Shown one piece after another: positions 3,973-63,358 of a stretch of 64,000 nt of DNA. The DNA comes from Dictyostelium discoideum. Taxonomy: Eukaryota. The notes beneath the pieces were generated by a model, which did not search any database, was not told where the DNA came from, and was given only the letters and a program-made list of their open reading frames with translations. The stretch covers positions 5,056,001-5,120,000 of the forward strand of contig CM000153.2 in assembly GCA_000004695.1 (NCBI GenBank), read 5' to 3'. Made by a program: the position numbers and the translations under genes. Position 1 is the first letter of the stretch; the number at the start of each line of letters is the position of its first letter.

Positions 3973-4011
<39 letters not shown>

Positions 4012-4410
4012 ATACTTACATTGTTGTAATTCATTTGCATTTAACCATTTTAAGATACAGTGCATATGAAAAGCATGATTACAAACACCCCAAACTGGTG
4101 GACAATCATCACCTGGTATTTTACAATCAACACAACAACCATCAAAAGCCATTCTACAAATACCACAGCATTCTTCATTTACATCCCAATGCCAAGCTGA
4201 TACAGTGTTCCATCTAAAAAAAATAAATAATATTGATTATTAATATTGACAGTTGATTATTGATATAACAATAAAAATAAAATTATATATTACATTTACC
4301 CTATATATTAATTATTGTAGAAATAGATTTTAATTAGAATTGTAAACTTATTATGGTATTTTATTTTTCTTTCAGATTATAAGAAACATACTTTTAATGG
4401 TAACCTTCAT
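3870..4410 (-). CDS. anapc11: Anaphase-promoting complex subunit 11 (RING-H2 finger). Three exons on the minus strand: 4391..4410, about 4142..4217 and 3870..3916.
   Basis: The spliced product reads MKVTIK|[65 protein letters not shown]|[15 protein letters not shown]. It aligns along its full length to human ANAPC11 ([84 protein letters not shown]). The donors are GTATGT and GTAAGT, and intron 2 contains a (TA)n tract. Confidence 0.8.
3955..4010. repeat. (TA)n dinucleotide microsatellite, about 20 or more units, inside anapc11 intron 2.
   Basis: An uninterrupted atatatatat... run is visible directly. Confidence 0.9.
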
Positions 4411-4680
4411 TTAAAATCTTAACAATTATTTTATTTTTTATTTTTTATTTTTTTCTTTTTTTTTTGAAAAAATTTAAATTTAAAAAAAAAAAAAAAAAAA
4501 ACTTAAATTTAAAAAAAAAATTTAAATTTAAAAAAAAAAAAAAAAAAATTTTAAACAAAGATTATCCAAACTAGTTAGTTTTTTTTTTTTTCCATTCACT
4601 TCATATTATTTCATTATTAAATTTTAAAAATTTAAATTCATCTTTTATTTTTTAAAAAAAATAATAACAATTGTCCAACA

Positions 4681-4830
4681 TGAAAAAACATTAATAGTTA
4701 GAGCTAACTATACTAAGAGAGCTTACTCCTTTGTTTCACACAATACCAACTATTGTGACATCACTACTTCATCATAAGCTGTATCAACAGCACACCCAAA
4801 ACTGCAACCATGTAATCTTTAGCCAACTAA
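4681..4830. other. A roughly 150-bp island of normal base complexity in an AT-rich intergenic region. It could be a small ncRNA or a promoter module. Function is unknown.
   Basis: The segment ttaatagttagagctaactatactaagagagcttactcctttgtttcacacaataccaac...cagcacacccaaaactgcaaccatgtaatctttagccaactaa stands out sharply from the flanking poly-A/T. It contains short hairpins (GTTAGAGCTAAC; TTAGCCAACTAA). There is no ORF on either strand. Confidence 0.2.
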
Positions 4831-4861
4831 TTTTAAATTTTTAATTTTTTTTTTTTATTTT

Positions 4862-4960
4862 TTTATTTTTAATTTTTTATTTTTTTGGGTCAATAGCGAA
4901 TTTTTAAGATATTTATAGATTTTTTGGCGAATTTTCAAGATATTTATAGATTTTTATTTC
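4862..4960. repeat. Two tandem copies of a 33-bp unit (cgaattttNaagatatttatagatttt) about 100 bp upstream of the 5049 gene.
   Basis: The direct repeat reads agcgaatttttaagatatttatagattttttggcgaattttcaagatatttatagatttttatt. Confidence 0.6.
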
Positions 4961-5048
4961 TGGATTTTTTTTTTTTTTTTTTTTTTTTATAAGTTTTTTG
5001 TTTTTTTATTATTGTCATTATTATTATTAATAATTAAAAACCATTAAA

Positions 5049-7511: not shown

Positions 7512-10500
7512 ATGTATTCAGGATTATGGACTAAAAATGGAGAACAAATACTTCCATCATTTATATCGATCAATGCCAAAGTTGTAGATTTGGCAGCACA
7601 AATCGTCTTTACCAAGACCTATTCAGACATTAACAAGTATTTCGCCACAATGAACAAAATGAACAGTAGCAACGAAGAGGATGCAACCTTTAAAGCATTT
7701 TTAAATACATCCATGGGTGTATTATGTGGTTTCGAAATCAATCTCGATGGTAAGAAGATCACATCCCAAGTCGTTAGTCAAGCCGATGCAATGAGATTGT
7801 TTGAAAAGAATCAAATCAGTACTGCCGATGATATCGTCAAGGAAGCCGAGTTCAACAATTCCGATCCACACATTGAAGAGGATTTCTTTCTCTGTAAAGT
7901 TAATAACCTCTCTCAATATAAGGAGCTAGAAATTATTATCACTTACTCCACTGAAATGTCAACCCAAGGTGACTATCTTTTTATGGAATTCCCAACTTCT
8001 CTAACTACAATTAGATCAAGTCAATTCTTTGAAACTTTAGATAATGAAAATAGTACAACAAATACAAATACACAAACTCAACCACAATCTGTAAATACAA
8101 CCACCACAACAACACCATCAACAACCACAGCCACAAATATAACAAATATAAATAATAATATACAAAATATAGGATCATCAACAACAGGTGGTTTAACACA
8201 TTCAACATCATCTAATAAATTATCATTATCATCATCATCAATTCAAGTTAATCAAAAACAAGGTTTATTGATTGAGATGAATTTAGATATGCCATCAAAA
8301 ATCTCCGAAATTATTTCACCATCACATTCAGGTTTGATTGATGTCGAGTACAAAGGAGAGACTGGTAAGGTAACATATAAAGATTCACGTTCTATCGATG
8401 TCGTTAATCAATCTGATTTGGTTGTATTGATTAAATTGGATAACCCACATGAACCATATGGTTTCATTGAAGAGAATGAAAATGGTAGCCGTGCTCTTAT
8501 GATTGCTTTCTATCCTCAATTATCCTCTGCCGCTATTGCCGCCTCTGCCACTACACCTGTCGTTGAAAGTGAATTAATCTTTTTAGTTGATGTCTCAGAG
8601 TCAATGGAAGGTTATAATATGAAACATGCAAAGAAAGCACTCCATCGTTTCCTTCATTCCCTTTCAAAGGATACCTATTTCAATATCATTAGTTTTGCTT
8701 CATCTCATCGTAAATTGTTTGCTCAATCTGTCAAATACAATGATGAAAACCTTAAAGCTGCCACTGCCTACGTAGAATCACTCAAAGCCATTAGCCATGG
8801 TGAAACTAATCTCTTGGAGCCATTAAAAGATATCTACTCTGTTGATGCAACTTGTCCAAGAAAAATATTCCTCTTAACTGATGGTCGTGTTAATAATATT
8901 GGTCCAATCGTTGATTTAGTTCGTCAAAATGCTCATAATACTTCAGTTTTCCCAATTGGTATGGGTGAATTCGTTTCACGTCAACTTGTAAGTTTTTTTT
9001 TTTTTTTTTTTTCGTTTTTTTTTTTTTTTTCTCTCTCTTCTTTTATTCTCTTTTTATAAAAAAAATATCTTTTGTGAACTTGGACAAAAATAATTAACAT
9101 CTCGGTTTTTTTTTTTTTTTTTTTTTTTTTTTCTTTTTTCTCTCTCTTCTTTTATTCTCTTTTTATAAAAAAAAATAGGTTGAATATATTGCAAATGCAG
9201 GATCAGGTGTTGCAGAATTAGTAATTGAAAATGAAACCATTGAAAGTAAAGTTATGCGTCAATTAAAGAGAGCATTACAACCAGCAATGTCAAATATTAA
9301 AGTTGATTGGGGATCATTATCAAGTAAGAGTCAAGCACCAAGAGATTTACGTACATTGTTTTTCGGTGATCGTTTAACTATTTATAACATTCTTGGAAAA
9401 GATGAAAAGATCGATGGTACTACCGTTAAATTAATTGCAAATGGTCCAACCGGTCCAGTATCTTTCCCAGTTACCATAAAGAGTGAAGAGACTAAAAAGG
9501 GTAATCTCGTTCATAGTTTAGCTGCCTATACATTAATTCAAGATCTTCAAGATCAAATCTATGAAAATAATTTAGTTGATCCAAAGGATATTGATCCAAT
9601 TCGTCAAAAAATCATTGATCTTGGTATTAAATATGGTTTAGCTTCAAATTATACTTCTTTTTGCTCTGTTGAACAACCTGATCAATTTAATGAATTATTA
9701 AATAACAATAAACAATCAGAACAAGCACAAGAAACAACAACCACCACCACCACCGCAACCACAGTTGATGATAATGTAGTTATTGAAGAGAATAAACAAC
9801 CAGAACCAATTGTAGAGGAACAACCACCAGTTTTAAATGGCAATATTAATTTACAAAATTTAACAATCAATCATGATGGTAAATCAAATGATAATGGTTT
9901 GTTCAAATCAAACGATAGACTTAAAACTCATCATCAAGGTGAAAGCGCTATGATTTCATTGAGAGGTTCTGCTAGTGGTATCCCAACTACTTTATCTGGT
10001 AGTGGTATTCCATTCTATAATCCATCTTCACCAAATCATGATCGTAATATCAATACTACTCAACAACCAACACCAACACAATCTACTCCATTAAAAACAC
10101 CATTAAAAACTCCACTCACTCCATTATCAAAATCTGGTCTTAAAGTTAGTTCACCAGAATTTGTACCAAAAAATACATTAAGTGCTAAAGCTGCTCCATT
10201 TGTTCCATCACCAAATAAATTACCAACTACAACAACTTCAGCTCCAGCAACAACTCCAATTACAACCCCAGCCCCAACTACTACTACTACTGAAGTTAAA
10301 CCAACTGTTGCAGAACCAGTTAAACCAGTTGTTGCAGAACCAACTAAACCAGTCGTCGCAGAACCAACTATACCAGCTGTCGCAGAACCAATTAAACCAG
10401 TTGTTACAGAACCAACAAAACCAGTTGTTGAAGAACCAGCAAAACCAGCTGTTAAACCAACACTTTTTGAAATGATTAAAATTGCTGAAGCTAAAGCTGC

Positions 10501-11227
10501 CGCTGAACAAAAAGCTGCTGCTGAACAAAAAGCAATCGCTGATGCAAAAGCTGCCGCTGAACAAGCTGCCAAACCTGTAGAACCAGCTGTTGTCCAACAA
10601 CAACAACCACAACAAACCAAACCAAAAGCTGATAAACAATCAAAACAAAATGCAAAGGATAATAAACAATCAAATAAACCAGTTGTTGTCGAACAAAAAC
10701 CACCAGTTGTAACTGAAACTAAACCAACTGTTGCCACTGAATCAGCTACACCAACTAAACCAACCTTTGCTCAAGCTGCTGCCGCTGCTGCTGCTGCTGC
10801 ACAACAAGCTGCACAACAAGCTGCTGCAACAACTCCAGTCAAACAACAACCAACTAAACAAACTACACCAAATAAATCAACACCAGCTGTTGAAACTAAA
10901 TCAGTTGTTGCTGAAACCAAACCAGCAGTTGAACAACCAAAACCAGTTGAAACCAAACCAGTAGTTGAACAACCAAAACCAGTTGAAACTAAACCAGTAG
11001 AACAAACAAAACCAGTTGAAACTAAACCAGTTGAAGTTAAACCAACAGTCGAACAACCAAAACCAGTCGAAGTTAAACCAACAGTTGAACAACCAAAACC
11101 AATTGAAACTAAACCAACAGTAAATTCAATTGCATCAACACTTGCTAATTTTGGATTCCAAACCAATGAACCAGCTAAACAAGCAACACCAACTCCAGCT
11201 CCAACTCCAGTACAATCAAATGAATCT

Positions 11228-11269
<42 letters not shown>

Positions 11270-13942
11270 AACAACAACAACAACAACAACAACAATATTG
11301 TTTCCTCAACACCAATTAAAAAACCAGCAGTTACAAATATTTTACCAACTCAAGCAGTTATTTTATCATCAGGAGGACGTCGTGTTTACAATAATGATTT
11401 CTTATTATCATTTAAAGATTCAAATACTAAAGCACCAGATTCATTAAAAACCACACCAATCTTTTCAAATGGGCCACAAGGTATTAGCCCATCATCTGGA
11501 AATGGTTCAAACAAATCCCACTTTGGTAAGAAGAGAGGTGATCGTGGTGGTAGAGGTGGTAGAGATCGTAATGCCGATGCTGAACCATCAACTCCAATCA
11601 TTGTTAAGAAAGTTTTCTCTCAAGATGTTCAAGGTACTCATCAAGAATTATTAAAGAAATTCAAATTCAATCTTAATAGAATTACAATGGATACCTATAG
11701 TTCATTGATTAAAAATATCGATGAATTAAAAGTACCAGATGAAGAAGCACTCAAATCAATCTCAAAGATTCTCTTTGAGAAAGCAATTATTGATCAAAAA
11801 TATTCAGCCGTTTATGCAATTCTTGCAGGTCATTTAGATACAACTTTCCCAAAGTTTGCCGAACTTTCACTCAAACGTGCCATTCTCGATAATTGTCAAA
11901 CTGAATTTAGTGCCGTTGTTGATAAATCCAAATTTGAAGGTTTAAGTAAAGAAGATCTCGAAGAACAAGAATTCATCATAAAGAGAAGAGTTTTAGGTAA
12001 CATTAAATTCATTGGTGAGCTCTATAAACATGGTGTTCTCGGTGAAAAAGTTGCAAAAGCTATCGTTGTTCAATTGATCACCAAATGTGAAGAGAGATTA
12101 GACGAAGAATCCATTGAACCATTGGTTAAGATTCTCAACACTATTGGTAAGAAACTTGATGAAGTCGATAAGGCCAACACTGATTTATACTTTTCCAAAG
12201 TAACCAACATCTCAAATAATCCAGTAGTTACCTCTAGAGGTCGTTTCATTTTATTGGATCTTATTGATTTAAGAGCAAATAAATGGCAACCAAAGAATTC
12301 CACCCAAACAAAAACCAAAAAAGACGAATCAGACAAAGAAGAACGTTTCATTGCTAAACATGGTGGTCCACAAAAGAGAGAAAATGATTCACGTAGAGAT
12401 GGCGGTAGAGACTCAAGAGGTGATGATCGTAGAGGTGGCGGTGGTAGAGATTCAAGAGGTGATGATCGTAGAGGAGGTAGAGATTCAAGAGATGCACCAA
12501 GAAGTGCATTTGGTGGAAAGAGTAGTAAAGATGGTTGGGAGACCGTTGGAGCAAAGGGAGGTAATAATAGAGATAAAGGTGGACGTGGTGGTGATCGTAG
12601 CGGCGGCAAACAATCTCCAAGTGGTAAGAAAGATTCAGGTTTTGGTCCATCGTCAGGTGGTTCAAGCTTATTTGGTAGTAGAAGAGGTGATGATCGTAGA
12701 GATGGTGGTGGTAATTCATCACCATATCGTCCAGGTCAAGGATTTGGTAGAAAGGATGATCAATCATCATCAATTCCATCAATTCCAAATAGATCCAATG
12801 CATTCAGTGCTTTAGAGGATGATGATTATCAACCATCAACATCACCACAACCACCATCAGTATTTGGTAATCGTTCCAACGATAGAGACTCTCGTGGTCC
12901 ATCAAAACCAGATAATCGTAAACAACCAGCTCAACCACCAGCCCCAGTTGAACCAGTTAAACCAAAGATTAACTTTGAAAAGATTGAAGATGATATTTCA
13001 ATGACTTTGGATGAATATGCTGAAACCCAAGATATCGATGAAGCCATCGAATGTATAAAAGAAATTAACGAACCAACCGTTTTGGGTAAACAATTCAACA
13101 TTTTCATCATGAAATCATTGGAGAGAAAAGAAAAAGAGAAACAATTGATCATCGAATTGTTCAGTGGTATCTTAACAGCCCAATTATTCAATGCCGAGCA
13201 AATCAAAGAAGGCCTCAAAGAAATCATTGATACCATTGAAGATATTGAAATAGATCTTCCATTCTCTGGTGTATTCGTTGCAACAATCGTGGGTATTTGT
13301 ATAGAATCTGAAATATTCCCATTGAATTATTTAGAGGAAGCATACGCTCATTTGGTTGATAGTGATAAAGCTGAAGAGATGATTGTAAATACATTTAATT
13401 CCATCGTCAAAGTCTCTGATAAAGATCGTTTAGTCGAAATCTATGAAAATACCAAAGGTCTTGATATCTTGAAGTTATTCGCTCTCAAGAATAGAAAAGT
13501 TGCCTACTTGGAAGAATTCTATCAAACTCATTTCCCATACCTCTCTCATGAAAAAGCTGTCGAAGGTAGTAATGAATCAGCTTTGAATGAACAACCAGAT
13601 CTCATCGAACATCTCTTATTGTTACAATCTGCTGATGGTTATTGGCAATTGGATAAGAAATTGGCTGGTATTTTAGGTATCTCTTTAAATATTTTAGAAG
13701 AAGTCGATTCTAGTGACAGTTGTGTTATCACTACACACCCAGAGGTTTGGGCAACTTGTTTAGCTATTACCTTTGTCAATTTAAATAATGTATCTGATCC
13801 AGATGATGAAGATGATTTGGAATTAGTACTCAGTAAAAGTCATAAATGGTTGGCTTCTCAATATCAATCTGATAAACCACCAAAACAATCTCAAGATGAT
13901 GTTTTATTAAAAGCTAAAAGATTATTAAGTGAAGTTTTATAA
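7512..13942 (+). CDS. Large protein joining an N-terminal VIT plus VWA module (VWA5A/PARP4-like) to an eIF4G-like core, which has an eIF4E-binding motif, a MIF4G domain, an RGG/RGD-rich segment and an MA3 domain. It ends in a VWA5A-type C-terminal tail. Exons are 7512..8987 and 9179..13942.
   Basis: Exon 1 carries the VWA MIDAS-type motif LIFLVDVSESMEG and LLTDGRVNN. It ends ...SRQL at a GTAAGT donor. A tttataaaaaaaaatag acceptor joins it in frame to exon 2 (VEYIANAGSG...). Exon 2 is a 1,588-codon stretch with no stops. It contains RRVYNNDFLLSF, which matches the eIF4E-binding motif KRYDREFLLGF of human eIF4G. It contains ...IIKRRVLGNIKFIGELYKHGVLGEKV..., which matches the RRRSLGNIKFIGELFK signature of MIF4G. 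It has an MA3-like region (DEYAETQDIDEAIECIKEINEP...) and ends ...LLLLQSADGYWQLDKKLAGILGI.... Confidence 0.7.
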
Positions 13943-18483: not shown

Positions 18484-20486
18484 ATGGAAAAAATAACATA
18501 TGATTGGTTAAAAGAAGATACAATTCTTTTAGAATCAGTATTAATTTTATCATTAAGTGGTTATTATATATCAAAAAATGAAATTAATAAAATTTGCAAA
18601 GAGTATGTTTTTTAAAAATAATAAATTAAAAAAAAAAAAAAAAAAAAAATGTTTATTAAAAAAATTATTTTAGTGATTTAGAAAAGCATGAAAGATTAAA
18701 TGAAGAACAATTTAAAATGTTAAAAGAAAAGAATATTATTTTGCAAAATAAAAATGACAATAATGAAATAAAATTGGAATGTTTAAAAAAAGAATTTAAT
18801 AAAATCAATTGTTCATTTTATTTAATTATTGAAAATAATAATAAGATCAATAAAAATAATAATATTAATAATAGTAATGATGATAAATATAATAATATAA
18901 TTGACTCCACTAAAACAATAAAATTATTAAAAAATAAAAAATCAAAGAAATTAAGGTCAGAATTATTTAGAAAAGTTTGGAAAAACATTGTTATAAAGAA
19001 TCAAATTTTATTAGAAGTTAGATTATACAATATTCATTATAATACAATAATGACTTTTTCAAATATATCATCATTACAAAGTTATAGATACAGAGGATAC
19101 TTGAATAAAATTATTATTGAAGATGAAGAAAAAAAAGAAATTATTGAACAAGGTATTATTCCTTGGGGAGTTGAAAAAATTGAATTTAAATTTAATCCAA
19201 TATTAAAAGAAAATTCAATACCAAATTCAGTTTGTCATTTAAAATTTGGTTATTCATTTAATAGACCATTTAATAGTAATATCATATCAGGTATTGAAAG
19301 TGATAATTGTAATTTAAAATCTTTAATATTTGGAAATAGTTTTAATCAACCATTAGAAACAACAACAACAACAACTACAAATGAAAACCAAAATAATAAA
19401 GAAAATAATGAAATTATTAATAATGATAAATGGTTATCAAAATTAAATAAACTTACAAATTTAGAATTTGGTGAATCATTTCAACAAGATATTAAAATTG
19501 GTCTATTACCAAATAGTTTAACATCTTTGGTATTATCAAAACATTATAATGGTATAATTGAAAATGGTGCATTAACAAATTCAATTTTAAATAATAACAA
19601 TTCAATTTTTAAATTTAAATTTGATTCAAATGGTAATAAGAATTCAATAATTGTTGATTATGTAAATTCAATTCCAAAGTATGTAACAACATTAGAATTT
19701 GATAATCAATTTAATCAAGTGATCCATAATGGTGATATTCCAAAGAATGTTAGATCAATTATTTTTGGTAAAGAATTTAATAGTTTTATTGAACCATTTT
19801 CAATAAATTCAAATGTAACATCGATTGAATTTGGATATAGATTTAATCAACCAATTATTGATAATCAATTACCCACTGAAAATTTAACAAATTTAACATT
19901 TGGTAATAATTTTAATCAAACCATTGAACCACATCAATTTTCAAAGAATTTGAAAAAATTAAAATATGGTTTAACTTTTAATAGAACCATTCAAGCTGGT
20001 TTATATTTTAATACTAGTTTAGAATCATTAAAATTCGGACCAAGATTCAATCAACAAATTCCATTGAAAACCTTACCAAATACATTGAAATATTTGGATC
20101 TATATGGTTGGACAGGACCAATTGTACCAGGTACTTTTCCACCATCATTAAAATCATTAAAATTAAATTATTTTAATCAACCATTACAAGTATCATCATT
20201 ACCATCATTGATTTCTTTGGAATTACTTGAAGATTTTAATCAACCAATTAATATAAATACAATTCCAACCTCTTTAAAATCATTAAAACTTGGTCGTAAT
20301 TATAGTCAAGACTTGACAAATTCCTTACCAGAGTCATTAACATCTTTAGATATTTCATCAACAAACTTGAAATTCAATATTGATTTATTACCAAATTTAA
20401 ATTCAATAATACTTTCAAATTATGATCATAATTTTTTAAATAATTTAGATTTTCAAATTTTTTCAAATTTAATTAAAATTAAATAA
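18484..20486 (+). CDS. FNIP-repeat-containing protein. Exons are about 18484..18607 and about 18674..20486.
   Basis: Exon 1 reads MEKITYDWLKEDTIL...ICK and ends at a GTATGT donor. A ...attattttag acceptor follows. Exon 2 has the usual N-terminal motif ELFRKVWKNIVIKNQILLEVRLYN and then at least ten FNIP repeats, for example FGYSFNRPF, FGNSFNQPL, FDNQFNQVIHNGDIPKNV, FGYRFNQPIIDNQLP, FGNNFNQTIEP and FGPRFNQQIP. Confidence 0.75.
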
Positions 20487-20580: not shown

Positions 20581-21048
20581 TTAAAGTGCTAAGAGTGAGA
20601 TTAAAGCACCAAAGATAATAGCAATACCAACGGCTACTTTATCAGCAGAGTTACCAGCTGGAGTTTCAGTTACTTGAGCATATTGACAAGTAACGTGGTA
20701 AGCAGAATTTCCTACATTAACAGTGAAGGTTGGACTAGTAGTATTTACCAAAGCTGGACATCTGAAACTTGCAACATTTGAGGTACCACTACAATTTGTT
20801 ACATTTTTACTATAATCATTAAGGGTAAACTGTTGGTTTGGAACATTATTTCCTTCACCTTTTATTCTAATACTTCCACCACAAGCAGAATTACATCTAC
20901 CATCAGTTGAAAAATATACAGTGGTGGTTCCAGAACCACATCCTGTACCTGAGATTCTAAATGAATTTGGTTGGTCAGTAAAATTAAATGCCCAACTTGA
21001 TGAAACACACAATGCAACGATTATTAAAAAAATTGAAATGAATCTCAT
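20581..21048 (-). CDS. Small secreted Cys-rich protein with a signal peptide and a C-terminal hydrophobic GPI-type signal. It is ponticulin-like.
   Basis: 155-aa ORF. The N-terminal signal is MRFISIFLIIVALCVSSSWA, the region is Gly/Ser/Thr/Cys-rich, and the C-terminus is GIAIIFGALISLLAL. A G-rich element lies at 21270-21330 upstream. Confidence 0.45.
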   Translation of the reverse strand: MRFISIFLIIVALCVSSSWAFNFTDQPNSFRISGTGCGSGTTTVYFSTDGRCNSACGGSIRIKGEGNNVPNQQFTLNDYSKNVTNCSGTSNVASFRCPALVNTTSPTFTVNVGNSAYHVTCQYAQVTETPAGNSADKVAVGIAIIFGALISLLAL

Positions 21049-25039: not shown

Positions 25040-25962
25040 TTACATTCTAATGAAAACTGGTTTCAATTCACCTTGTCTCTTTTTTAATAAATTAACTAAT
25101 GATTGATCAATTTGTGGTGGAAGATTACTACTTTGTTCACCTGGAGGTATGTTATGGAGAAGGGTCATAATTTCTTTATCGATTTTAGAGATCTTTCTGA
25201 ATGGCCATTTTCTACCTCTTGCAGCTTCTTTCCATCTTTTACTCAAGGTTGAAGTTGGTATACCTAATTTCTTTGCAGCTTCACTTTGTGGGAAATTTAA
25301 ATATTCTGTAATCTCTATATAGGTTGGATTGGCTTCTGTTAATGATCTATTTTCTGTTGTAACTAATGCATTTGATGCTGATGGAACTGTATTTTGTCCT
25401 GTAATTGATGCTATAATATTTCCATTATTATTATTGTTATTATTATCACCACGTGGAGAACTTTCTTCATCATCACTACCATCACTATTATAATTATTAT
25501 TATTATTGTTGTTATTGAAATTATCGTTGTTATATCCATCATTCATATTATCATTATTATTATTATTATTATTACTATTATTATTATTATTACTATTACT
25601 ATTATTATTATTTCCATTATTATTACTATTATTACCATTATTATTGTTACCATTATTGTTATTGTTATTATTGTGGTGATTATTATTGCTATTATTACTA
25701 TTGTTATTATTCAAACTATTAGAATTTGAATCATTTGTTCTTAAAGTTATATTGGCGGGTGTTACTTCTCTGATATCAGGGTCAGATTCTCTATCATATG
25801 GTGTCGCAGCTGGTGCATTCATATAATGTTGTAAGTGTAAAGGGATTCTATCCTTTGTTAGTGACAATGGTCTACTATATGGTGAACCATGTGAAAAATG
25901 TGGATTGGTTGATGGACTATATACATGTGGTGATGAATTATTGCTGTTATTACTATTGTGAT

Positions 25963-25994
<32 letters not shown>

Positions 25995-26644
25995 CTATTA
26001 TTATTGTTATTATTATAATTATTGCTGTTATTATTGCTGCTATTATTATTATTATTACTATTATTATTATTATTACTATTACTATTATTATTATTATTGC
26101 TATTGTTATTGCCATTGCTATTGCTATTGCTATTGCTATTGCTATTGCTATTGCTATTGCTATTGCTATTGCTATTGCTATTGCTATTGCTATTGCTATT
26201 GCTATTGCTATTGCTATTGCTATTGCTATGGTTACTATTATTATTATTATTGCTATTGCTATGGTTATTATTATGGTTATTGTTGCCATGGTTGTTGTTA
26301 TTGTTACTATTATTGCTATTATTATGGTTGTGGTTATTATTGTTATTGTTGTTGTTGTTTCCATTGTTGTTACTGTTGCTGTTGTTGTTGTTGTTGTTGT
26401 TGTTGCTGCTGTTGTTGTTGTGGGTGGCACTCATTACATTTTGAGGTGATGGTAAATTGGGGGAACTATTACCTCCATTGCTATTAACATTTCCATTGGC
26501 ATTGTTGCTATTGTTGCTATTATTATTATTTACATTGCTGCTGTTATTGTTATTATTATGGTTTAAAATTGAATTTGCAGGAAAATCAAAATCTAATTGT
26601 GGATGGGTTGGTAATCTTGGTTGCTGACTTGAAAGATGTGACAT
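25040..26644 (-). CDS. RWP-RK domain protein, a putative transcription factor, with very long poly-Asn/Ser/His tracts.
   Basis: 534-aa ORF. The C-terminus reads ITEYLNFPQSEAAKKLGIPTSTLSKRWKEAARGRKWPFRK, which is the RWP-RK signature. Upstream there is low-complexity N/S/H-rich sequence, including a (GCTATT)n run coding an (NS)n tract. Confidence 0.7.
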
Positions 26645-35514: not shown

Positions 35515-51567
<16,053 letters not shown>

Positions 51568-51748: not shown

Positions 51749-52879
51749 ATGAGATTATTTTATCTTATTTTTTTTTTAATTGTTTCTACAATTATTAATG
51801 GTTGTAATTCTCAAATTCAAAAAAATGATTGTATTTATTTTTAGTTAAACTATTTTTTTTTTTTTTTTAATGACTTTTATTTTTTGTTACTAACATTTTT
51901 TTTTTTTTTTTTTATTTAAAAAAAAGATAATTGTTTAAATAAATTGATTGTTAAAATTGCAAATCTTTCATTATATAAATTAAATAGTACATCTAAACAA
52001 TATGATTATTGTGGAACAAAAAATAATAACGTAATAAATTGTAATTCAAATGGAAGAATAACAGATATTCAACTAACTCATTTTGTAAACAAAGCAACTA
52101 ATTTAATTTCAGCAAATGATTATTATTGTTTTCCTTTTTTAAAATCAATGTAAGTAAATTTTAAAATTTATTTTTTAAAATTATTACTCTTTTAAATATT
52201 AGTATTTTTTTTTTACTGTTTATTTAGAGGTGTAGATAGTTTTAGAATTGAGAAAAATTTTATATATGGTCCTTTTCCTGATACTTTATATAAAAGAATT
52301 TTTTTATTAAATGGGGATTTATTATCAGTATTTGATGTTGACACTGAAATTGGATTTAATAATACTATTAAAAGAACAGAAATTGATACTTTTAGACTTG
52401 TTGGTGGTGTTGCTACATCATTAAACACTACAGTTTATATGTCAACAATTTCACATTTTAAAAATATTGAATTTATATATGGTACTGCAGTAATTACAAA
52501 TAAAACCAACTTTATATTTGAAAATGATTTAAATGAAAATAAAAAATCATCATTTAAAAAAATTACTTCCTATTGCTCAAATATACCACCATTAAGTTAT
52601 AATAATGGAACTATTAATTTCGTGTACGTATAAACTAATTTAACATATTTATTTAAATATATTTTTAGTTTTAATTAATATTTTTTTTTTTTATTTTTAT
52701 TTAAGTGAACTCACATTTTTACCAAGTTTCGATAAAGAATCAGTTTCAAATTTTTCAAGTTATTCAAATGTTTTGGATATTTATTTAAATTCATGGGACC
52801 CGAATCAAGTTTTCCCATTTCCACTAGGTCTTGGTAATATTCCACCAAATAATAAATTAATTTATATGTAGGTTTTTAG

Positions 52880-52916
<37 letters not shown>

Positions 52917-53049
52917 ATCTAAATCAATTAAATTTTTTTTTTTTAGATACATTAACTATTTAATTGATAGCCCACCTCATTTAATTGACCTATCAAACTT
53001 AGACTCAAACGATAAAACCGATTTATATTCTTATAATACATTGTATGTA

Positions 53050-53082
<33 letters not shown>

Positions 53083-54311
53083 TAACTATTTATAATTTTG
53101 GAAATTAGAACATTGAATAATCCAGGTAATCTTTTCAATTTTAATGGTAAATTCCCATTCTCTTCTCTTCATAAAAATTTAGTGATTTTGTAAATATTTA
53201 TAGATTAATTATTATTGTTTTTTTAAATTTTTTTTTTTTTTTTTTATTAACATTTATAAATTAATTATATTATTTTAGTGATTTTAATGATGGTAATTTT
53301 TCAGAATTACCAAAATTAGAAGATGTTTTTAAAGAGGAAATAGCTGTAATTAATTTGAATAATAATAGTATTGGAGGAAATATTCAAACCACATTGGATT
53401 TTAATAAACTTCCAAAGTTAGCAACACTTAATTTAAGAAATAATAGATTAACAGGATCAATTGACGAAAGTTGGTGTAGAATTAATTTTGATATTAGTTA
53501 TAATCTTATTGGTGGTGAAGCTCCTAGTTGTATGGTTTGTCATTTTCAACAAAATGATTTATCTATTCGTGGAATAAATTTTACTAATTGGAATCCAAAA
53601 CCACCATGCACTTCAATTATTCCAAATTTAATGTACGATAATTCAACAAAACTATTATTAATATATGGTCAAGATATTGGCGTTGCAAGAACAAATTTTA
53701 AAATAGAAAACTCATATAACTATTCACCATATTGCAGTATGCCTGGTTATCCAGATATTAGAAATAGACAATTTTGTTTTAAATACATTGACACTGATGA
53801 ACCAAATCCATTTTCATTTAATATTACATACCCAAAATTACCACCAGGTTCAAGAAAAACATTTGAATTGGCTGCTTATAATATGTTTTTACCATTGGTT
53901 AATAAGGTTACAATGAACTCCAAAGAATCATTAACAATTGCTGGTAGATATTTCGCATACAACAAAACAGTAATTAATGTTCAAGTTGATGGCAAAATCT
54001 GTAATATTGAATCATGTGATTTTAATGAAATTAAATGTAAATTTTCAAATGATAATAACAATAATATTAATGGTTTAAATGTATTTGTACAAATTATGAA
54101 TGTTTCATCCCAATTTTGTATTTCCAAATGTAATGCAGCTGATAATTATGAATGTGAATTTAAATTTGAAAGATGTAATTGTAGTGAAGGATGGGAAGGT
54201 GGTGACTGTAGTATTAAAATTGAGAACAAATTATCAAATTCAAATAGAAACAATATTTTAAATACTACTATAATATTTATAGTTTTAATTTTAATACTAT
54301 CATCATTTTAA
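51749..54311 (+). CDS. Secreted or membrane-anchored protein with plant-type leucine-rich repeats and a C-terminal EGF-like module. This is copy A of a tandem pair. Seven exons: 51749..51830, 51927..52149, 52228..52623, 52706..52867, 52947..53042, 53109..53189 and 53279..54311.
   Basis: Exon 1 is a signal peptide (MRLFYLIFFLIVSTIINGCNS). The LRR motifs include LRNNRLTGSIDESWC and DISYNLIGGEAPSC. The EGF-like module is CEFKFERCNCSEGWEGGDC. The C-terminus is hydrophobic (IIFIVLILILSSF). All donors are GTAAGT, GTACGT, GTAGGT, GTATGT or GTAAAT. The phases close across all six introns. Confidence 0.65.
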
Positions 54312-54467
54312 TTTAAAAAAAAAAATAAAAAATGTGGTTTTAAGACAAAATTCTTAAAATATATTTATTTATTATAAAAAAAACATTGTTTTTTTTATAA
54401 TAAAATTTTTTTTTTTCAAACGATAAAACTATGAAAAAAAAATAAAAAATAAAAATAGTTTTTTTTT

Positions 54468-54500
<33 letters not shown>

Positions 54501-54524
54501 CCAAACGAAAAATTAGTAAAGATA

Positions 54525-55688
54525 ATGGGAAGATATTTCGTTTTTTTATTAGTTTTTATTTTGTTTTTTAATGGTTTTAATTCGCAAATTCATAAAGATG
54601 ATTGTATTTATATTTTTATTTTTAACCTTCAATAACTTTTATACATATACACACAACTAACATTTTAATTTTTTTTTTTTTTTTGTTTTTTTTTATTTTT
54701 TTTAAAAAAAAAAAAGATAGTTGTTTGAATAAATTAGCAGTAAAAATTTTAAATCTATCATTATATAGTTTGAATAGTACAACTAAACAATATAATTTTT
54801 GTAGTAAAGTAAATAAAAATGAAATAAATTGTAATTCAGATGGGAGAATAACAGGAATTCAAGTAGTTCATTTCAAAAAAATAAATTTACTTTCGCCAAA
54901 TGATTTTATTTGTTTTCCTTTTTTAAAATCAATGTAAGGCAATTTTAAAAAAGATATATTTATTTAAAAATATTAATTTTTTTTTTATTAATTAATTTGT
55001 TTTATTATTAATTTATTTAGAGGTGTAGAAAGTTTTGTAATTTCAAAAAATTTTTTATATGGTCCTTTTCCTGATTCTCTCGATGAAAGAGTTTTTTTAT
55101 TAAATGGGGATTTATTATCAATATTTGATGTTGACACTGAAATTGGATTTAATAATACTATTAAAAGAACAGAAATTGATATTTTAAGAGTTAATGGTGG
55201 TGTAGCTACATCATTGAACACTACAGTTTATATGTCAACAATTTCACATTTTAAAAATATTGAATTTATATATGGCACTGCAGCAATTACAAATAAAACC
55301 AACTTTATAATTGAAAATGATTTAAATGAAAATAAAAAATCATCATTCAAAGATTTCACTTCCTATTGTTCAAATATACCACCATTAAGTTATAATAACG
55401 GTACAATTGATTTTGTGTATGTATAAAGCTATTATATAATTTAACATTATATTTATTAAAATATATTTTTAATTTTAATTAATATTTTTTTTTTTTTTTC
55501 CCCCAAGTGAACTCACATTTTTACCAAGTTTCGATAAAGAATCAGTTTCAAATTTTTCAAGTTATTCAAATGTTTTGGATATTTATTTATACTCATGGGA
55601 CCCGAATCAAGTTTTCCCATTTCCATTAGGTCTTAGTAATATTCCACCAGGAAATAAATTAATTTATTTGTAGGTTTTTTGTTTTATT

Positions 55689-55719
<31 letters not shown>

Positions 55720-55840
55720 CTAACCCAAAACAAAACTTTTTTAGATACACAAGCTATTTAATCGATAGCCCACCTCATTTAATTGACCTATCAAACTTGG
55801 ACTCAGATGCTAAGATTCCATATAATTTTAATACATTGTA

Positions 55841-55872
<32 letters not shown>

Positions 55873-57395
55873 AAAAAATAAAAAAGAGAAACATTAATTA
55901 ACTATTTATAATTTTAAAAATTAGAACCATAGATAGTCCAGGTAATCTTTTCAATTTTAATGGTAAATTCCCATTCTCCTCCTTTTATAAAAATTTAGAA
56001 CATTTGTAAATATTTAAAAATAATATTATTTATTATTATTACTAATAACATTATTATATTAATTTATTTTTATTAATATTCTTTTTTTTTAAAAATTATT
56101 CTTTTAGTGCTCTTAATGATGGTAATTTTTCAGAATTACCAAAATTAGAAGATGTTTTTAAAGAGAAAATAACTGTAATTAATTTGAATAATAATAGTAT
56201 TGGAGGAAACGTTCAAACCACATTGGATTTTGGTAAACTTCCAAATTTAAAGGTACTTAAATTAAAAAATAATAAATTAACAGGATCAATTGATGAAAGT
56301 TGGTGTAGAGTTAACTTTGATATTAGTAATAATCTTATTAGTGGTGAAGCTCCTGGTTGTGTTATTTGTCATGTTCCTGATCATCATCCACGTATTCGTG
56401 GAATTAATTTTACCAATTGGGATCCAAAACCACCATGCACTTCAATTATTCCAAATTTAATGTACGATAATTCTTCTGACCTACTCTTACTCTATGGTCA
56501 AGATATTGGCTTCTCGCCTATGGATATGTATATACTAGATATTTCATATAAATTCTCATTTTCCTGTGATATGCCTGGTTATCCTGAAATTTATAATACT
56601 CAATTCTGTTTAAAATACATTAGCACTGATGGACCAAATCCATATTCATTTAATATCACATACCAACACTTACCACCAGGATCAAAAACAACATTTGAAT
56701 TGGCAGCTTATAATATGTTTTTACCATTAGTTAATACCGCTATATTGGATTATTCCAATGAATCATTAACAATTGCTGGTAGATATTTCTCATACAATAA
56801 GACAGTAATTAATATTCAAGTTAATGGTAAAACCTGTAATATTGAATCATGTGATTTTAATGAAATTAAATGTAATTTTTCAAATGATAATAACAATAAT
56901 AGTAATTTTAATGGTTCAAATGTATTTGTACAAATTATGAATGTTTCATCGGAAATTTGCATTTCCAAATGTAATGATGATGTCCCTTATGAATGTGAAT
57001 TTAAATTTGAAAGATGTAATTGTAGTGAAGGATGGGAAGGTGACAATTGTGAAACTCTTAAAAGATGTCCAAATGATTGTAGTGGTGCAGGTATTTGTAA
57101 TCATATCACTGGAATATGTTTATGTAATTCTGGTAGAATACAAGATGATTGTAGTGTTTTAGGATTTGAATGTAAGTCAGATTGTTTAAATGGTTCAAAA
57201 TGTAATTATGCAATTGGTAAATGTGATTGTATACTTGGATGGGAAGGTGATGATTGCAGTTCAGAATTATCATCATCAGAACCATCATCATCATCAGAAC
57301 TATCATCATCAGAACCATCAAAATCAAACAAAATAATACTGCTCAGTGTTCTATTACCATCACTTGCATTGTTGGGTTTAATATTATCATTTTAA
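54525..57395 (+). CDS. Copy B of the LRR/EGF protein. It has the same seven-exon structure and carries two extra EGF-like units and a Ser/Glu-rich stalk before the C-terminal hydrophobic anchor.
   Basis: Exon 1 is MGRYFVFLLVFILFFNGFNSQIHKDD| at 54525..54603. Exons 2-6 are collinear with copy A at about 80-90% amino-acid identity. The last exon is ORF 56184..57395 and contains the extra EGF-like units CPNDCSGAGICNHITGICLCNSGRIQDDC and CKSDCLNGSKCNYAIGKCDCILGWEGDDC. Confidence 0.65.
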
Positions 57396-57519
57396 TGCAA
57401 AAACAATAATAAAAATAAATATAGTGTAAAACTAAATAAATAAATAAAAAAAACAATTATTTTTTATTATTATTATTATTATTATTACTATTTATTTTTA
57501 TAATTTTATTTTTTATTAT

Positions 57520-57554
<35 letters not shown>

Positions 57555-58044
57555 TTTTTTTTCATTTTTTTTAATCTTAAAAATAAAAAATTAAAAATAA
57601 AAATAAAAAAAACAAAGATAAAAATTTAAAGAAAAAAAATAAAAAAAAAATATCGATGAAACCTAAAATAGAACCTTTTTTTTCAATTTTCATGGAATTA
57701 ATATATTTTGCACCAAAAAATTAAGAAAAATACATTATGTATCATATTAATAGTGATCACCACTTTGGTGATTTAAAAAAACTTAAAACTTTTTTACAAA
57801 AAAAAAAAATAAAAAAAAATTATTTTTTAATTAATTTTTTTTATTTTTTTATTTTTTTTTTATTTAATTTTATTTATATTAAAAATAAAAATAATAAAAA
57901 TAATAAAAAAAAAAAAAAAAAAAATAATTTCATCAAAAAAAAAAAAAAAATTTTATTTAATATATATATATAAAAAAAAAAAAAAAAAAAAGAAATATAA
58001 AGAAATATAAAGAAATATATAAAGAAAAAAAAGAAAAAAAAAAA

Positions 58045-58975
58045 ATGTCATTTTTAAATAAATCAAATAATATTCCAAACTATATACAAAAAGAAATAAT
58101 TAAATTGATTTGTTATCAATGTAATAGAGTGAATAAAAAATTATGTGAATTTGATTTATATGAAGAAGAAGAAATTAAATATAAATCAATAAATAAAACT
58201 ATATTATCAATTTGTTTAACATCATGGTTCTGGTTTAAAACTTGTTCAACCTATATGAATGTAATAATTAATTTTAATAAATCAATTGATATTATAAATA
58301 ATAATAATAATAATAATAATAATTATTTTAATAATATTATTTATAATAATATAATAAATAATAATAATAATAAATATTCAATGTTAAAAATTGAAAATTT
58401 AACAACACTGGTATTAGAATCATCAATTATAAAAAGTATGAATTTCATTGAAAGATTAAATAAATTTTTAAATTTACAAGTTATAAAAACAAATTTAAAA
58501 AAGATATTAATTCATATAAATTATAGTAATAACAATAGTCAAAATAATCAATTGATATCAATGATTGGTAAAATTGATTTTCCGTTTATTAGAATTAGTA
58601 ATTTCGAATTTGATGTGTCAATAACCTCAATGACGACATCATTCATTCTACCAATTAATATTAAAAAGATTAAAAGTATTGGCGTATTAAAGAACTATTC
58701 ACCATCAATGATCATTTCAAATCTTAGAAATCTATCATTTAAAGAGATTTACATTTGTAATTATAATAATAAATTCCCATTTAAAGAACTATCAATTATG
58801 AATAAACTTTCATCGGTTCAATATTATGATACTCATAAAACTTCTATTAAAATTGATGACCTTTATTATATACTAAAATCAAGTCCAAATTTACAATTAT
58901 TATCATTTTATATTTGTATTGATGATTTAATTTATCAATTATCTTGTCCAAAACATAAACCAAAATCATGTCAAT

Positions 58976-59022
<47 letters not shown>

Positions 59023-59649
59023 TCATTATCAACAACCACTACCACTTCCACCTCCACCTCCACCACTTCATCAACTACAACTACTACAACAATTTCAAAT
59101 ACAACAAATAATGAATTTTCATTTTATTATTATTGGAGAATGGTTTGTAAATTAATTAAAAATCATAAGAAATTAAAAAGTTTATTTATTTATTCCTTAT
59201 GTAAAAATGGTGAAAATTGTGGTTTAAATTATTTAAATAAATTAAAAATGTCAAATCATTTCGTTAATCAATTTGGTGGTATGATATCAAAGAATAAATC
59301 AATAAAGAAATTAAATTTAGACGGTTTTAATTCACCAGATTTATTAAAACGTATAATTACCAATAATAATACTATCAATTCAATTCAATTTCAATTCCCA
59401 AATAATGGTAATAATATTTTAACAAATAATCAAAAATTAGAATATATTAATATTTTTGATAAATTATTAAATAATAATAATTATGATAATGATGACAGTG
59501 GATCACAACAACCACAATTACAACAACCACAACAACAACCACAACAACTACAACATTCTATAAAGAAATTCAAATTAATTGAAAATATAAGTAATCAAGT
59601 TGATTCAAAGGTTAAAACCGAAAAGGTTTTATTTTCTTTTGAAAAGTAA
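58045..59649 (+). CDS. Hypothetical Asn-rich orphan protein of 534 aa. It may be F-box/LRR-like.
   Basis: Intact ORF. The N-terminus is IPNYIQKEIIKLICYQ. Leu-rich segments follow, for example LKSLFIYSLCKNGENCGLNYLNKLKMS. Internal poly-N, poly-T and poly-Q runs are present. No confident domain match can be made by eye. Confidence 0.45.
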
Positions 59650-60183
59650 AAATAAAATTTCATGGTTCCAGAATGCTTTTTTTTTTAAAAAAAAAAAAAA
59701 TATCTTAATTTTAGTTTTTTATTTTAATGGAAAACAAGATATTTTTTTTTTTATTTTTTTAATTCACCTTTTAAATAAAATAATAAAATTAAAAGATATT
59801 TTTAAGTTATTTTTGATTCCAATTTTTTTTTTTTTTATATTCTTTAACTAAAACCATATGTTTTTTTTTTTTTTTTTTTTTTTCTATTTTTTTTTTTGGA
59901 TCAATAAGATATAATGAAGAAAAAAAAAAATATATTAATATGACCCGAGATGATTCTTTGGTTGATATACTTTTTTTTCCTACCCATTCCCCTTTGTTTT
60001 TTTTTTTAAAAAAAATATATTAATTAAAAGAATATTACCAATATTAAAATTCAAACTCCCTTAATATGTTTGTGTATATTCTCCATTTCTTTTTGTTGTT
60101 TCCTTAAAAAAAGTTTTTACAATCCAAAATATCATAATGTAAATGATTAAAAAAAGGAATTGAGTGTTGTTTAAATTTTTTTT

Positions 60184-60224
<41 letters not shown>

Positions 60225-60595
60225 TTTATAATAAAAATAAATTTAAAATAAATAAATAATAATAATTAACTATATTAAAATAAAAAGTAGGGATACAAAA
60301 AAAAATATCTATTTAAATTGAAAACAAAATAATATAAAAATAATTGGGGATTGTAAATTTACATATACCTCATTCTCTGATTATTTCAAAGAAAATATTT
60401 TATTTGATTTTTTTTTTTTGATTTGAATAAATCTTTTTAATTTTACAAATTTTTTTTTTTTTTTTTTTAAAATGTTATTTTTTTTTTTTTTTTTTTTTTT
60501 AAAAAAATCATTTCAAATTTTATAAAATAAATAAATAAATAAAAATAAAATGTCAAAAATAAATTCTTTATTTACAAAAAGTTAAAAAAGAAAAT

Positions 60596-61951
60596 TTGGA
60601 TTATATAATTGATGAAAAAAAAAGTTTATTATTTTTTAAAATTTGGAATAATATAATTTTAAAAAATAAAATTCTTTTAGAGAATAGATTATTTTTAATA
60701 AATTCAAGTCATAGAGTTTCATTTAATAATTTAAAAGAGTTGATACAATATCCACAACAATCTAAAGAGAATTTATATTTTATAAAATTTAATCACTCAC
60801 CGACTTCAAAGAATCTATACCACCATCAGTTGAAAATATCAATTAATAAATTGCATTAATGATGATAGTCAAATTAAATTTACATTTAATAAAAATAATA
60901 ATAATAATAATAATCATAATGGATTAATTATTAATGATGATAAAAAACTTCAATTATCTCATCATGAAAGAGCATTTATTGTTAATACGTTTATTCAATG
61001 TAGTTTTGAAACAATAAAATATGGATTAAATTTTAACCAAGATCTTATTGGTGGAATTTTACCACCTGGTGTAAATAAAATAAAATTTGTTGGTTCAAGA
61101 TCACCTTGTTCAATAAAACCATTCTCAATTCCTGTATCAGTTACATTTATTCAATTTTCAAGAAGTTCAAATTTTAATGAAATGATGGAAGAGAATTGTT
61201 TACCAAAAAAATTAAAAAGATTTGAAATGAGTGATTCTTATAGTAGATTAATTAAATTCCCACCATCACTAAGCAGACTTTCAATTGGTAAAGAATTTAC
61301 TCATTTTCCAATTAACAAGATATTATCAAATGATGGTAATTCATTGGAATTTTTAGATTTAACAAGGGCAAAACATTTCGATGGTAATTTTAAAGACTTA
61401 TCAAAATCAATTAAAACATTATCATTATCACTTGACAATATTTTCAGAGGTACAATTGATAATAAAAATTTCATACCTATTTAAATTTCAAATATAACTG
61501 AATTATATTTATGTAATATTAAACCAATGTCACCAACATATAAACTTAAAAACATGCCAAATAGTTATTTCCCATCATCAGTTACATCATTACATTTTAT
61601 TGATTGTTCAGTTTTAGAATTAAATCAAATTCATTCAAATATTACAATACTATCATTACCAAATGAATTTAATCATTAAAACAAATTTTTAATTCAAAAG
61701 TTAAATATTTATCATTGGGTTCTCAATTTAATCAAGATCTAACTTTACCAGAATCTTTACCAATTTCACTAATTACTTTAAATATTGGTTCTTCAAATTC
61801 ATTATCAAATGATAATTTAAAAATTGATCATTTAACTTTGAAAACAATTAAAACTTTTAATACAAATTTAAAATTTTTAAAATCAAATCTTTTAAATTCT
61901 TTAATCATTTCCCCAAATCATACAGTTAAAATTATAACAAAAAAATATTAA
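60596..61951 (+). pseudogene. Decayed FNIP-repeat gene. FNIP-type coding sequence is scattered over at least three different frames.
   Basis: Frame 2, 60596..60859, reads (TTG)DYIIDEKKSLLFFKIWNNIILKNKILLENRLF.... Frame 0, 60834..61484, reads ...YGLNFNQDLIGGILPPGVNKIKFVGS...LSIGKEFTHFPINKIL.... Frame 1, 61715..61951, reads LGSQFNQDLTLPESLPISLITLNIG.... No usable splice sites explain the frame changes. The 40-nt stretch between the candidate GTTGAA...AG pair is too short for an intron. Confidence 0.5.
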
Positions 61952-62373
61952 AACTTTAAATTTCTTTTTTTTATTTAACAATAATAAAAATAAATAAATA
62001 AAAGAATTATATTTTTAAAATATACAAAAAGTTGTTTAATTAATATATTTATTTTTTATTAATAATGATTATTGATGATATTAAACTATTAATGATTTTG
62101 AAAAAGATGATCTAGTATTAATTGGGAGAATTTCAATTATAGTGTATATATATATATTGGTGGTAGATGATTTGTTCCTACAAAAATAAAATCCAATTGG
62201 ATTACTTTTTCAGTTACAAATCCAATAGATCCAAAAAATTATCCACACTTTTTTTTTTTTTTGAAAAAAACAGTAAAACAAATAAATGAAAATAAGAAAT
62301 TTATAAAACTAAAAAAAAAAATAAAAATAAAAATAAAAATTAAAAAACTTGATCAAAAACGAAACCTTTTTTT

Positions 62374-62411
<38 letters not shown>

Positions 62412-62437: not shown

Positions 62438-63358
62438 ATGAGTGATATCAATGAAAGAAAACAAGCAATTTATGAAAAATTTCAAAAAGTTTTAAATGAA
62501 GAGAAATTAGGGAATGAAAGTGGTGAAAATAAAAAAGAAACAAATGTAAATAATAATAATAATATAGAAAAAGATATTCAAAAAAATAATGATGATAATC
62601 CAATACTTGAAAAACCAAATAGATTTGAAAGTGATATATTATTAGAAAAGAGAAGAAAAGAATTGGAAAAAGAGATTAACGAAATTAATGAAGCTTTAAA
62701 TAAAAAAGGAAGTTCAAGCCTTACTAAATCAAAACCAAAAGAATCATGGTATACATCCTATCCAAAATTAAATTCATTTTTTTCACATCCAGATTTTCGT
62801 GATTGGCAAAAATTCACTTCAATCATGTCAATTGCTGGTTTAGTAATGGGTGGTCTTCATGGTTATAGTGAAGGTAAAAAATATATTAGAGAATCTATTG
62901 CAAAATCCATACACAGTCCATTATCAATTTCATCTGTAAGTTTTAAAATTGAAAATAATTAAAATAATTAAAATAATAAAAATAATAATAACATTTTTTA
63001 AAAAATTTTAAATTTTAATTAGGTTCAATTAAATCAAAGAAAAACATTAGGTATAATGGTATTTAGATCATCATTAATATTTAGTTATAGATGTGGTTTA
63101 TATACAGCAACATTTTTAGGTACAGAATATTTATTAAAGAATAATGTTTTTGGTGAAAGTTTATTAAATAGAACATTGGCTGGTACTGCCATTGGTGTAT
63201 TAAGTGCTTTTCATATGAGAAAAAGAGGTAATTTAGTAGTTCCAATTTCAATTTGCATGGGAACTACCATTGGATTTTTTACTGGTTGTGCTGATTTATT
63301 AGTTGATAAATCTTTTAGAAAAATTGAACAATTAAAAAAAGAATCAGAAAATAAATAA
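62438..63358 (+). CDS. Tim17/Tim22/Tim23-like (PRAT family) four-helix membrane protein with an N-terminal coiled-coil extension. Exons are 62438..62935 and 63023..63358.
   Basis: Exon 1 ends ...SPLSISS at a GTAAGT donor. An aattag acceptor follows. Exon 2 reads VQLNQRKTLGIMVFRSS.... There are four Gly-rich hydrophobic segments: GLVMGGLHGY, CGLYTATFLGTEY, LAGTAIGVLSAF and ISICMGTTIGFFTG. Confidence 0.35.

Follow-up and report, generated by a model that had tools for sequence, protein, structure and literature searches.

A probable unitary pseudogene of a conserved, intron-less FNIP-repeat gene in the AX4 genome of Dictyostelium discoideum

The FNIP family (Pfam PF05725) consists of FGxxFN-type leucine-rich repeat (LRR) proteins whose units follow the consensus hxxhxhxxxFNxxhxxxIPxx / FGxxFN (PMC9525666). 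Described members include Crov588, the structure of which has been solved (PDB 6nyr), and chtB (DDB_G0290617). Pseudogenes are known in Dictyostelium discoideum from the tgr family (e.g. tgrC_ps1), in which the copy in strain AX4 is disabled by stop codons or frameshifts, while the gene is open in other strains or cryptic sister lineages (bioRxiv 10.1101/2025.10.22.684067). The AX4 reference also has pseudogene fragments that were reported as genes, and gene models that were patched with artificial introns (PMC5282741). The locus described here combines an FNIP gene with this kind of damage. It lies at 60550–61951 (+) in a stretch of 64,000 nucleotides (nt) of the D. discoideum genome (contig CM000153.2, positions 5,056,001 to 5,120,000 of the forward strand), called the window below; all coordinates are positions in the window. 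A previous reading of the window from its letters alone (the sequence-only reading) had taken the locus for a decaying FNIP gene in a family limited to dictyostelids and giant viruses. That range is too narrow – FNIP matches have been reported in a brown alga (104 matches, the name being printed as 'Endocarpus'; PMC9525666) and in Entamoeba (bioRxiv 10.64898/2026.03.01.708701). The locus is very probably, with a probability of roughly 0.93, a unitary pseudogene of a single-copy, intron-less FNIP/FGxxFN LRR gene.

Translation of 60500–62010 in three frames shows FNIP-type sequence that moves from frame to frame. The Pfam FNIP model, which has a gathering score of 21 bits, matches 60861–61481 (+) with 59.4 bits (E=3.7e-16, 3 repeats) and 61676–61948 (+) with 26.2 bits (E=8.9e-6), and these matches agree with the distribution over three frames given by the sequence-only reading. 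The surviving coding segments are the following.

60550..60585 (+): ancestral start ATG at 60550 plus 11 codons (MSKINSLFTKS), frame 1, ending at a premature TAA at 60583–85
60584..60804 (+): conserved N-terminal region (KKENLDYIIDEKKSLLFFKIWNNIILKNKILLENRLF...YFIKFN), frame 2
60805..60839 (+): short remnant LTDFKESIPPSVEN from a degenerate repeat unit, frame 1
60840..61670 (+): main FNIP/FGxxFN repeat block, frame 0, broken by an in-frame stop at 61482–84
61671..61951 (+): C-terminal segment (SLKQIFNSKVKYLSLGSQFNQDL...TVKIITKKY), frame 2, with the ancestral stop TAA at 61949–51

The ancestral ATG, from which intact orthologs read MSKINSYFTKS, lies 46 nt upstream of the start assigned previously. 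The 87-amino-acid open reading frame (ORF) at 60596–60859 is the frame-2 N-terminal segment. It was correctly seen to start at TTG and to have no in-frame ATG, which is explained by an extra T at 60583 that severs it from the ATG at 60550. A tblastn search with the intact ortholog P0001 placed residues 7–89 at 60569–60817 (frame 2, 88% identity), residues 170–449 at 60840–61676 (frame 3, 94% identity) and residues 450–543 at 61673–61948 (frame 2, 97% identity). About 80 ortholog codons (residues 90–169) are absent from the window copy, so the coding sequence is not the continuous run that had been supposed.

The window sequence shows units of ~22 residues in tandem that fit the family consensus (IKYGLNFNQDLIGGILPPGVNKIKF, LSLGSQFNQDLTLPESLPISLITLNIG), and the repeat motif of the ancestral gene is of the form ...LNFNQDLIGGILPPGV... 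and ...LGSQFNQDLTLPESLP.... The conceptually repaired protein scores 65.4 bits with the Pfam FNIP model, and the intact orthologs score 70.3–88.2 bits. Between three and six repeats are called in the intact orthologs, compared to 13 in another FNIP gene of the window, at 18484–20486. Only two or three repeats of the window copy still score singly; the intact orthologs, too, have many degenerate units. No Pfam domain, F-box or other, was found in the N-terminal segment, where the only matches were chance ones below threshold.

A database search with the joined conceptual protein found four full-length proteins: ACTFIW_012670, from a genome labelled D. discoideum (543 amino acids, 95% identical to the conceptual protein), two proteins of D. 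cf. discoideum (550 and 543 amino acids) and one of D. citrinum (556 amino acids). A fifth ortholog, ACTFIR_011663 (545 amino acids, also labelled D. discoideum), is in the same 90% cluster. All five are encoded by a single intron-less ORF of 543–556 codons with one terminal stop. The comparison with the syntenic locus in relatives that the sequence-only reading had proposed thus finds an intact ORF at that position in five genomes, and the gene order is common to these and the window: a ComC-like LRR gene, a gene of ~411–582 amino acids, the FNIP gene, a gene of ~280 amino acids, and an RRP5-like S1 gene. Pairwise ratios of non-synonymous to synonymous substitution rates (dN/dS) among the five orthologs are 0.11–0.48, and the orthologs are therefore under purifying selection. 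Between ortholog P0001 and Crov588 (6nyr_A), the FGxxFN LRR protein of solved structure, there is a match with E=5.4e-33 over 7 stretches. An AlphaFold2 model of P0001, made from a 4-sequence alignment, shows beta-strands ~20–25 residues apart, but its mean confidence (pLDDT, predicted local distance difference test) of 49 is too poor to judge the N-terminal domain or the LRR solenoid with a buried phenylalanine spine that is expected of the family.

A five-way DNA alignment against the intact orthologs (MAFFT) was used to call the lesions. Six insertions or deletions (indels) were identified, four of them frameshifting, along with two premature TAA codons; all of these are absent from the five orthologs. 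The indels sum to −230 nt, which is the difference between the 1632 nt of the intact gene and the 1402 nt of the window copy.

Lesion 1, 60583 (+): one extra T (relative to ACTFIW), giving TAA at 60583–85; frame 1 to frame 2
Lesion 2, ~60797–60805 (+): net loss of 19 nt, placed by MAFFT after 60804; frame 2 to frame 1
Lesion 3, 60839/60840 (+): loss of 199 nt; frame 1 to frame 0
Lesion 4, 61478–61484 (+): net loss of 3 nt plus substitutions, giving the in-frame TAA at 61482–84
Lesion 5, after 61670 (+): 4 nt lost, a single AATC from the AATCAATC tandem; frame 0 to frame 2
Lesion 6, after 61833 (61833/61834) (+): loss of 6 nt (ACCATC), in frame

Two of the lesions have a second reading. Lesion 1 is equally explained if a longer, ACTFIY-type allele lost 29 nt between two AAAAAGT repeats, and lesion 2 may be read as a loss of 4 nt in CA[AGCA]CTCACC plus a loss of 15 nt that deletes SDLIL. 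Lesion 3 takes out about three 22-residue repeat units (IYLPPKLNCAIDSKLIPNQVHTVYL...FEKSKYN), which are most of the 80 missing codons. At lesion 4, CCT TTA AAT TTC AAT (PLNFN) of the orthologs has become CCT ATT TAA ATT (PI*). Past lesion 5 the old frame meets a TAA at 61677–79, and lesion 6 changes HLPSTL to HLTL, so that the conserved LP of a repeat is gone. No reading of the locus can yield the ancestral protein. The five intron-less syntenic orthologs show that each change of frame is an indel in what was once coding sequence, which bears out the earlier view of a decaying pseudogene that is not rescued by introns. The single +1 shift that had been placed near 60834–60859 is a real break, though it consists of two events, lesions 2 and 3. 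The later shifts and stops are present as well, as the TAA at 61482–84 and the loss of 4 nt after 61670, but the earlier map of them was incomplete.

Among the intact orthologs, the low-complexity stretch that follows codon 11 differs in length by 0–30 nt, always in frame. The N-terminal stretch at 60550–60600 appears to be a slippage hotspot.

These observations can be arranged as a history. The common ancestor of the D. discoideum/D. citrinum group would have had a gene of ~543 codons, and the AX4-type D. discoideum lineage, the proteins of which are matched exactly in the window, would then have gained the lesions of +1, −19, −199, −3, −4 and −6 nt. The lesions are located at short direct repeats and in A/T-rich sequence with the periodicity of the repeat units. 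They may have arisen through replication slippage or microhomology-mediated deletion, because lesions 1 and 5 have tandem or direct repeats and the sequence at lesion 3 has the period of the repeat units. Deletions account for five of the six indels, and for every one of them on the 29-nt reading of lesion 1. In D. discoideum lines kept for mutation accumulation, the indel rate was twice the substitution rate and deletions were 4.5 times as frequent as insertions (PMC7466956), and the deletion-dominated decay of this locus fits that measured spectrum. The ORF fragments that remain (99–207 codons) are left over from the old frame and do not represent new genes, and the locus would probably give no functional product.

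Several observations weigh against this reading. The nearest intact copies differ from the window flanks by ~3–4.5% substitutions plus many indels. The two genomes labelled D. discoideum, GCA_054859355.1 and GCA_054859385.1, are ~97% identical to each other and ~89–92% identical to the window; they are probably a divergent lineage, which may be cryptic, rather than D. discoideum in the strict sense, because the divergence of the flanks is about ten times the reported within-species diversity of ~0.3% (bioRxiv 10.1101/2025.10.22.684067). An independent assembly, GCA_054883475.1 (prefix ACTFIT), confirms the sequence of the window, not the fixation of the lesions in wild D. discoideum. On the window branch there are 7 synonymous and 8 non-synonymous changes (cleanly aligned codons, polarised by outgroup). 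The non-synonymous changes fall significantly short of a crude estimate for neutrality (one-sided binomial p=0.016; the counts are small), and the branch is indistinguishable from the sister stem (5:2, Fisher p=0.38). Relaxed constraint is not shown by the substitutions alone, residual constraint on some fragment also fits them, and a truncated product may be expressed. Since the substitutions on the window branch still look selectively filtered, they suggest that constraint acted along most of it and that the gene died late, measured against the time since the nearest sequenced lineages split off. The dating is only loose: after the split from the nearest divergent lineages.

A first alternative is that the null allele is specific to the NC4/AX4 laboratory lineage or is a partial polymorphism in the wild, with intact alleles still segregating, and that the loss, or a truncated product such as DDB_G0286965 (99 amino acids) or the 264-amino-acid fragment, has an effect on phenotype. 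It is considered unlikely. Another FNIP gene, chtB, affects the social behaviour of D. discoideum. If this were the true explanation, the locus would not be a neutral relic, and the standard laboratory strain would be naturally knocked out for a conserved FNIP gene.

A second alternative is that the locus holds one or two live spliced genes, and was remodelled or split rather than killed. Public annotations have gene models here. In the AX4 genome, the 99-amino-acid ORF at 61185..61484 (+) is listed as the hypothetical protein DDB_G0286965 (Q54L29, XP_637474.1), for which a literature search found no paper. Exact contig look-ups with the ORFs of 100 and 99 amino acids gave no match. This ORF is an internal piece of the ancestral repeat solenoid (approximately residues 285–383 of P0001); it begins at an internal methionine and scores 18.2 bits with Pfam FNIP, under the 21-bit threshold. 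The annotation of GCA_054883475.1 has two genes at the locus, ACTFIT_005157 (264 amino acids) and ACTFIT_005156 (109 amino acids). All GT-AG combinations that give products of these lengths were enumerated, and there was one solution per gene. The reproduced products are exact matches to the NCBI entries KAM9941793.1 and KAM9941792.1, and they retain Pfam FNIP matches of 56.4 and 26.2 bits; this, together with substitutions that are not clearly neutral, is what favors live genes. The introns that the two models require are as follows.

60581..60680 (+): spurious intron 1 of ACTFIT_005157, GTTAAA...TTTTAG, 100 nt; it cuts out the conserved N-terminal motif LFFKIWNNIILKNKILLE
60829..60868 (+): spurious intron 2 of ACTFIT_005157, GTTGAA...TGATAG, 40 nt, GC 0.20; it spans the junction of the 199-nt deletion
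61606..61700 (+): spurious intron of ACTFIT_005156, GTTCAG...CAAAAG, 95 nt, GC 0.18; it spans the −4 frameshift

The sequence-only reading had seen no plausible splice signals around the breaks. GT...AG pairs do exist around some lesions, but they are non-consensus. The donors of the two genuine introns that were checked nearby (n=2) are GTATGT (18603–18673) and GTAAGT (in DDB_G0286939, starting at 62939); the consensus GTAAGT/GTATGT is taken from these two window introns and general knowledge, not from a genome-wide tally. The GC content of the three spurious introns is 0.11–0.20, compared to 0.056 in the genuine intron at 18603–18673, and one of them is only 40 nt long. They excise coding sequence that is conserved in five intron-less orthologs. 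The 264-amino-acid model reads HSPTSKNLYHHH from a shifted frame, without a counterpart in any ortholog, and about 80 codons, or roughly three repeat units, are lost in any case. The TAA at 61482–84 cannot be bypassed, and the ACTFIT models still need two separate genes. Fragments of dead genes reported as genes, and models patched with artificial introns, are documented (PMC5282741). Live spliced genes are for these reasons very unlikely, and the public annotations wrongly present fragments of a pseudogene as protein-coding. Programmed frameshifting or RNA editing was also considered and rejected: either would have to mend four separate shifts, the loss of 199 nt and a stop codon in frame, and none of these is found in the orthologs.

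A third alternative is that a redundant duplicate, made from the FNIP gene at 18484–20486 or from another paralog, decayed here, rather than that a unique ortholog was lost. The FNIP family is very large in Dictyostelium (557 hidden Markov model matches, PMC9525666; 419 FNIP proteins in D. giganteum, bioRxiv 10.64898/2026.03.01.708701), and the two FNIP genes of the window have an N-terminal motif in common, LF.K.W.NI..KN.ILLE.RL. The intact gene is as follows.

18484..20486 (+): intact two-exon FNIP gene, 643 amino acids; exon 1 18484–18602, intron 18603–18673 (71 nt, GTATGT...TTTTAG), exon 2 18674–20486

Its structure and motif are as described in the sequence-only reading, and the model matches the ACTFIT annotation. 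It scores 218.7 bits with Pfam FNIP, over 13 repeats. Compared to the orthogroup of the dead gene, it is 34% identical over 110 N-terminal amino acids (E=1e-7) and ~25% identical over the repeats. It was presented as the paralog of the dead gene, and it is indeed a member of the family; judged by sequence, it is a distant one, neither the source nor a close paralog of the dead gene.

Searches for a closer relative gave nothing. A tblastn search with P0001 found no second close copy within the window. With the C-terminal 347 amino acids as query and scores for all 3401 candidates, the close matches were the ortholog clusters alone; the next best, of 24–26% identity, belong to other species. No AX4 protein was found in this search, which was a word-seeded protein search and not a whole-genome tblastn of AX4; like the search with the joined conceptual protein, it missed the 99-amino-acid DDB_G0286965, although that protein is ~95% identical to part of the query, so very short proteins may escape it. 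The locus does not have the marks of a processed pseudogene, since it occupies the orthologous position and its native flanks align. The absence of introns is uninformative in this respect because the ancestral gene was itself intron-less. With one-to-one syntenic orthologs in five genomes, and nothing above 24–26% identity outside the orthogroup in the collection searched, a decayed duplicate is scarcely plausible. One-to-one synteny and the absence of a close paralog therefore make this locus a unitary pseudogene and not the decaying twin of a recent duplicate. Gene death in progress, as previously proposed, stands as the loss of a conserved unique ortholog.

The last alternative, that the lesions stem from faulty sequencing or assembly of a genome rich in AT and homopolymers, and that the gene is truly intact, is next to impossible – the AX4 reference does have known single-base errors patched with artificial introns (PMC5282741), and lesion 1 is a single base beside an A-run, but the lesions are identical in the independent assembly GCA_054883475.1 and are therefore not sequencing errors, and five of the six are losses of 3 to 199 nt outside homopolymers. 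The window at 60301–62100 is the same as this assembly except for one T in a poly-T run upstream of the locus, and 60479–62100 is the same base for base. Over a comparison of ~12 kb (the 52880–62376 region), the two differ by a single substitution (60117 T>C) and by 11 indels, each of which lies in a non-coding A or T run; in 9 of the 11 the run is longer in the window. These run-length differences look like homopolymer compression in one sequencing technology, or true slippage, and the pattern is the one expected from independent sequencing of nearly one genotype.

The window as a whole is ~20% GC, with poly-Asn coding tracts, and the genes that surround the locus are ordinary: eIF4G-like, UBA2-like, a giant HECT ligase and two ComC-like LRR genes. 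Several of its proteins match AX4 entries exactly, among them DDB_G0286965 and the following.

20584–21048 (−): pspE (Q9GP84), an exact match to the AX4 protein
62438–62959: first exon of DDB_G0286939, a 174-amino-acid ORF in the 90% cluster of that protein, matching its N-terminus

Other features of the neighborhood were recorded as well. The gene 5' of the FNIP locus (58045–59649) is annotated with 534, 528, 560, 522 and 582 amino acids across the genomes, and with 411 in ACTFIR, where its counterpart is at positions 3954–5189 of that locus. It has long poly-Asn and poly-Thr tracts, and its differences in length could be repeat-length variation or differing gene models. This ORF and a second one of 534 amino acids, at 25040–26644, were compared as possible relatives and are unrelated. 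At 52045–57042 (+) there are two tandem ComC-like LRR genes (Pfam LRR_ComC, EGF-type) with ~84% DNA identity over ~2.2 kb, and the pair looks like a local tandem duplication. The 1562-amino-acid eIF4G-like ORF at 9254–13942 (+), with MIF4G and MA3 domains, accounts for a local GC content of 0.36, compared to ~0.2 elsewhere. A single ORF of 4884 codons at 36913–51567 (+) encodes a giant ubiquitin ligase of the HECT type, which also has SPRY and PH domains. A tRNA scan of the window found none. A scan for bacterial-type promoters and terminators found fewer sites than in shuffled sequence, and the model is irrelevant to a eukaryote.

This is an ordinary pseudogene of a large repeat-protein family. 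Its value is mostly for annotation, and it addresses no open mechanistic question. DDB_G0286965 and the two ACTFIT models inflate the counts of genes and orphans, and would mislead analyses of the FNIP family. As a case of gene decay dominated by deletions in D. discoideum, the locus is also clean and resolved in full.

Among the described systems, the ancestral gene belongs with Crov588 and chtB in the PF05725 family; unlike these two, the window copy is predicted from its sequence to be non-functional. As in the cases of PMC5282741, ORF fragments of a dead gene were annotated as coding and introns were invented over breaks in the frame. Some of those patched models covered errors in the reference, whereas the lesions here are real and are reproduced in a second assembly. 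The locus also resembles the tgr pseudogenes, of which the AX4 copies are disabled in the same manner. The tgr genes, however, are found in clustered, rapidly duplicating arrays under diversifying selection, while the FNIP locus is single-copy, in conserved synteny, with orthologs under purifying selection.

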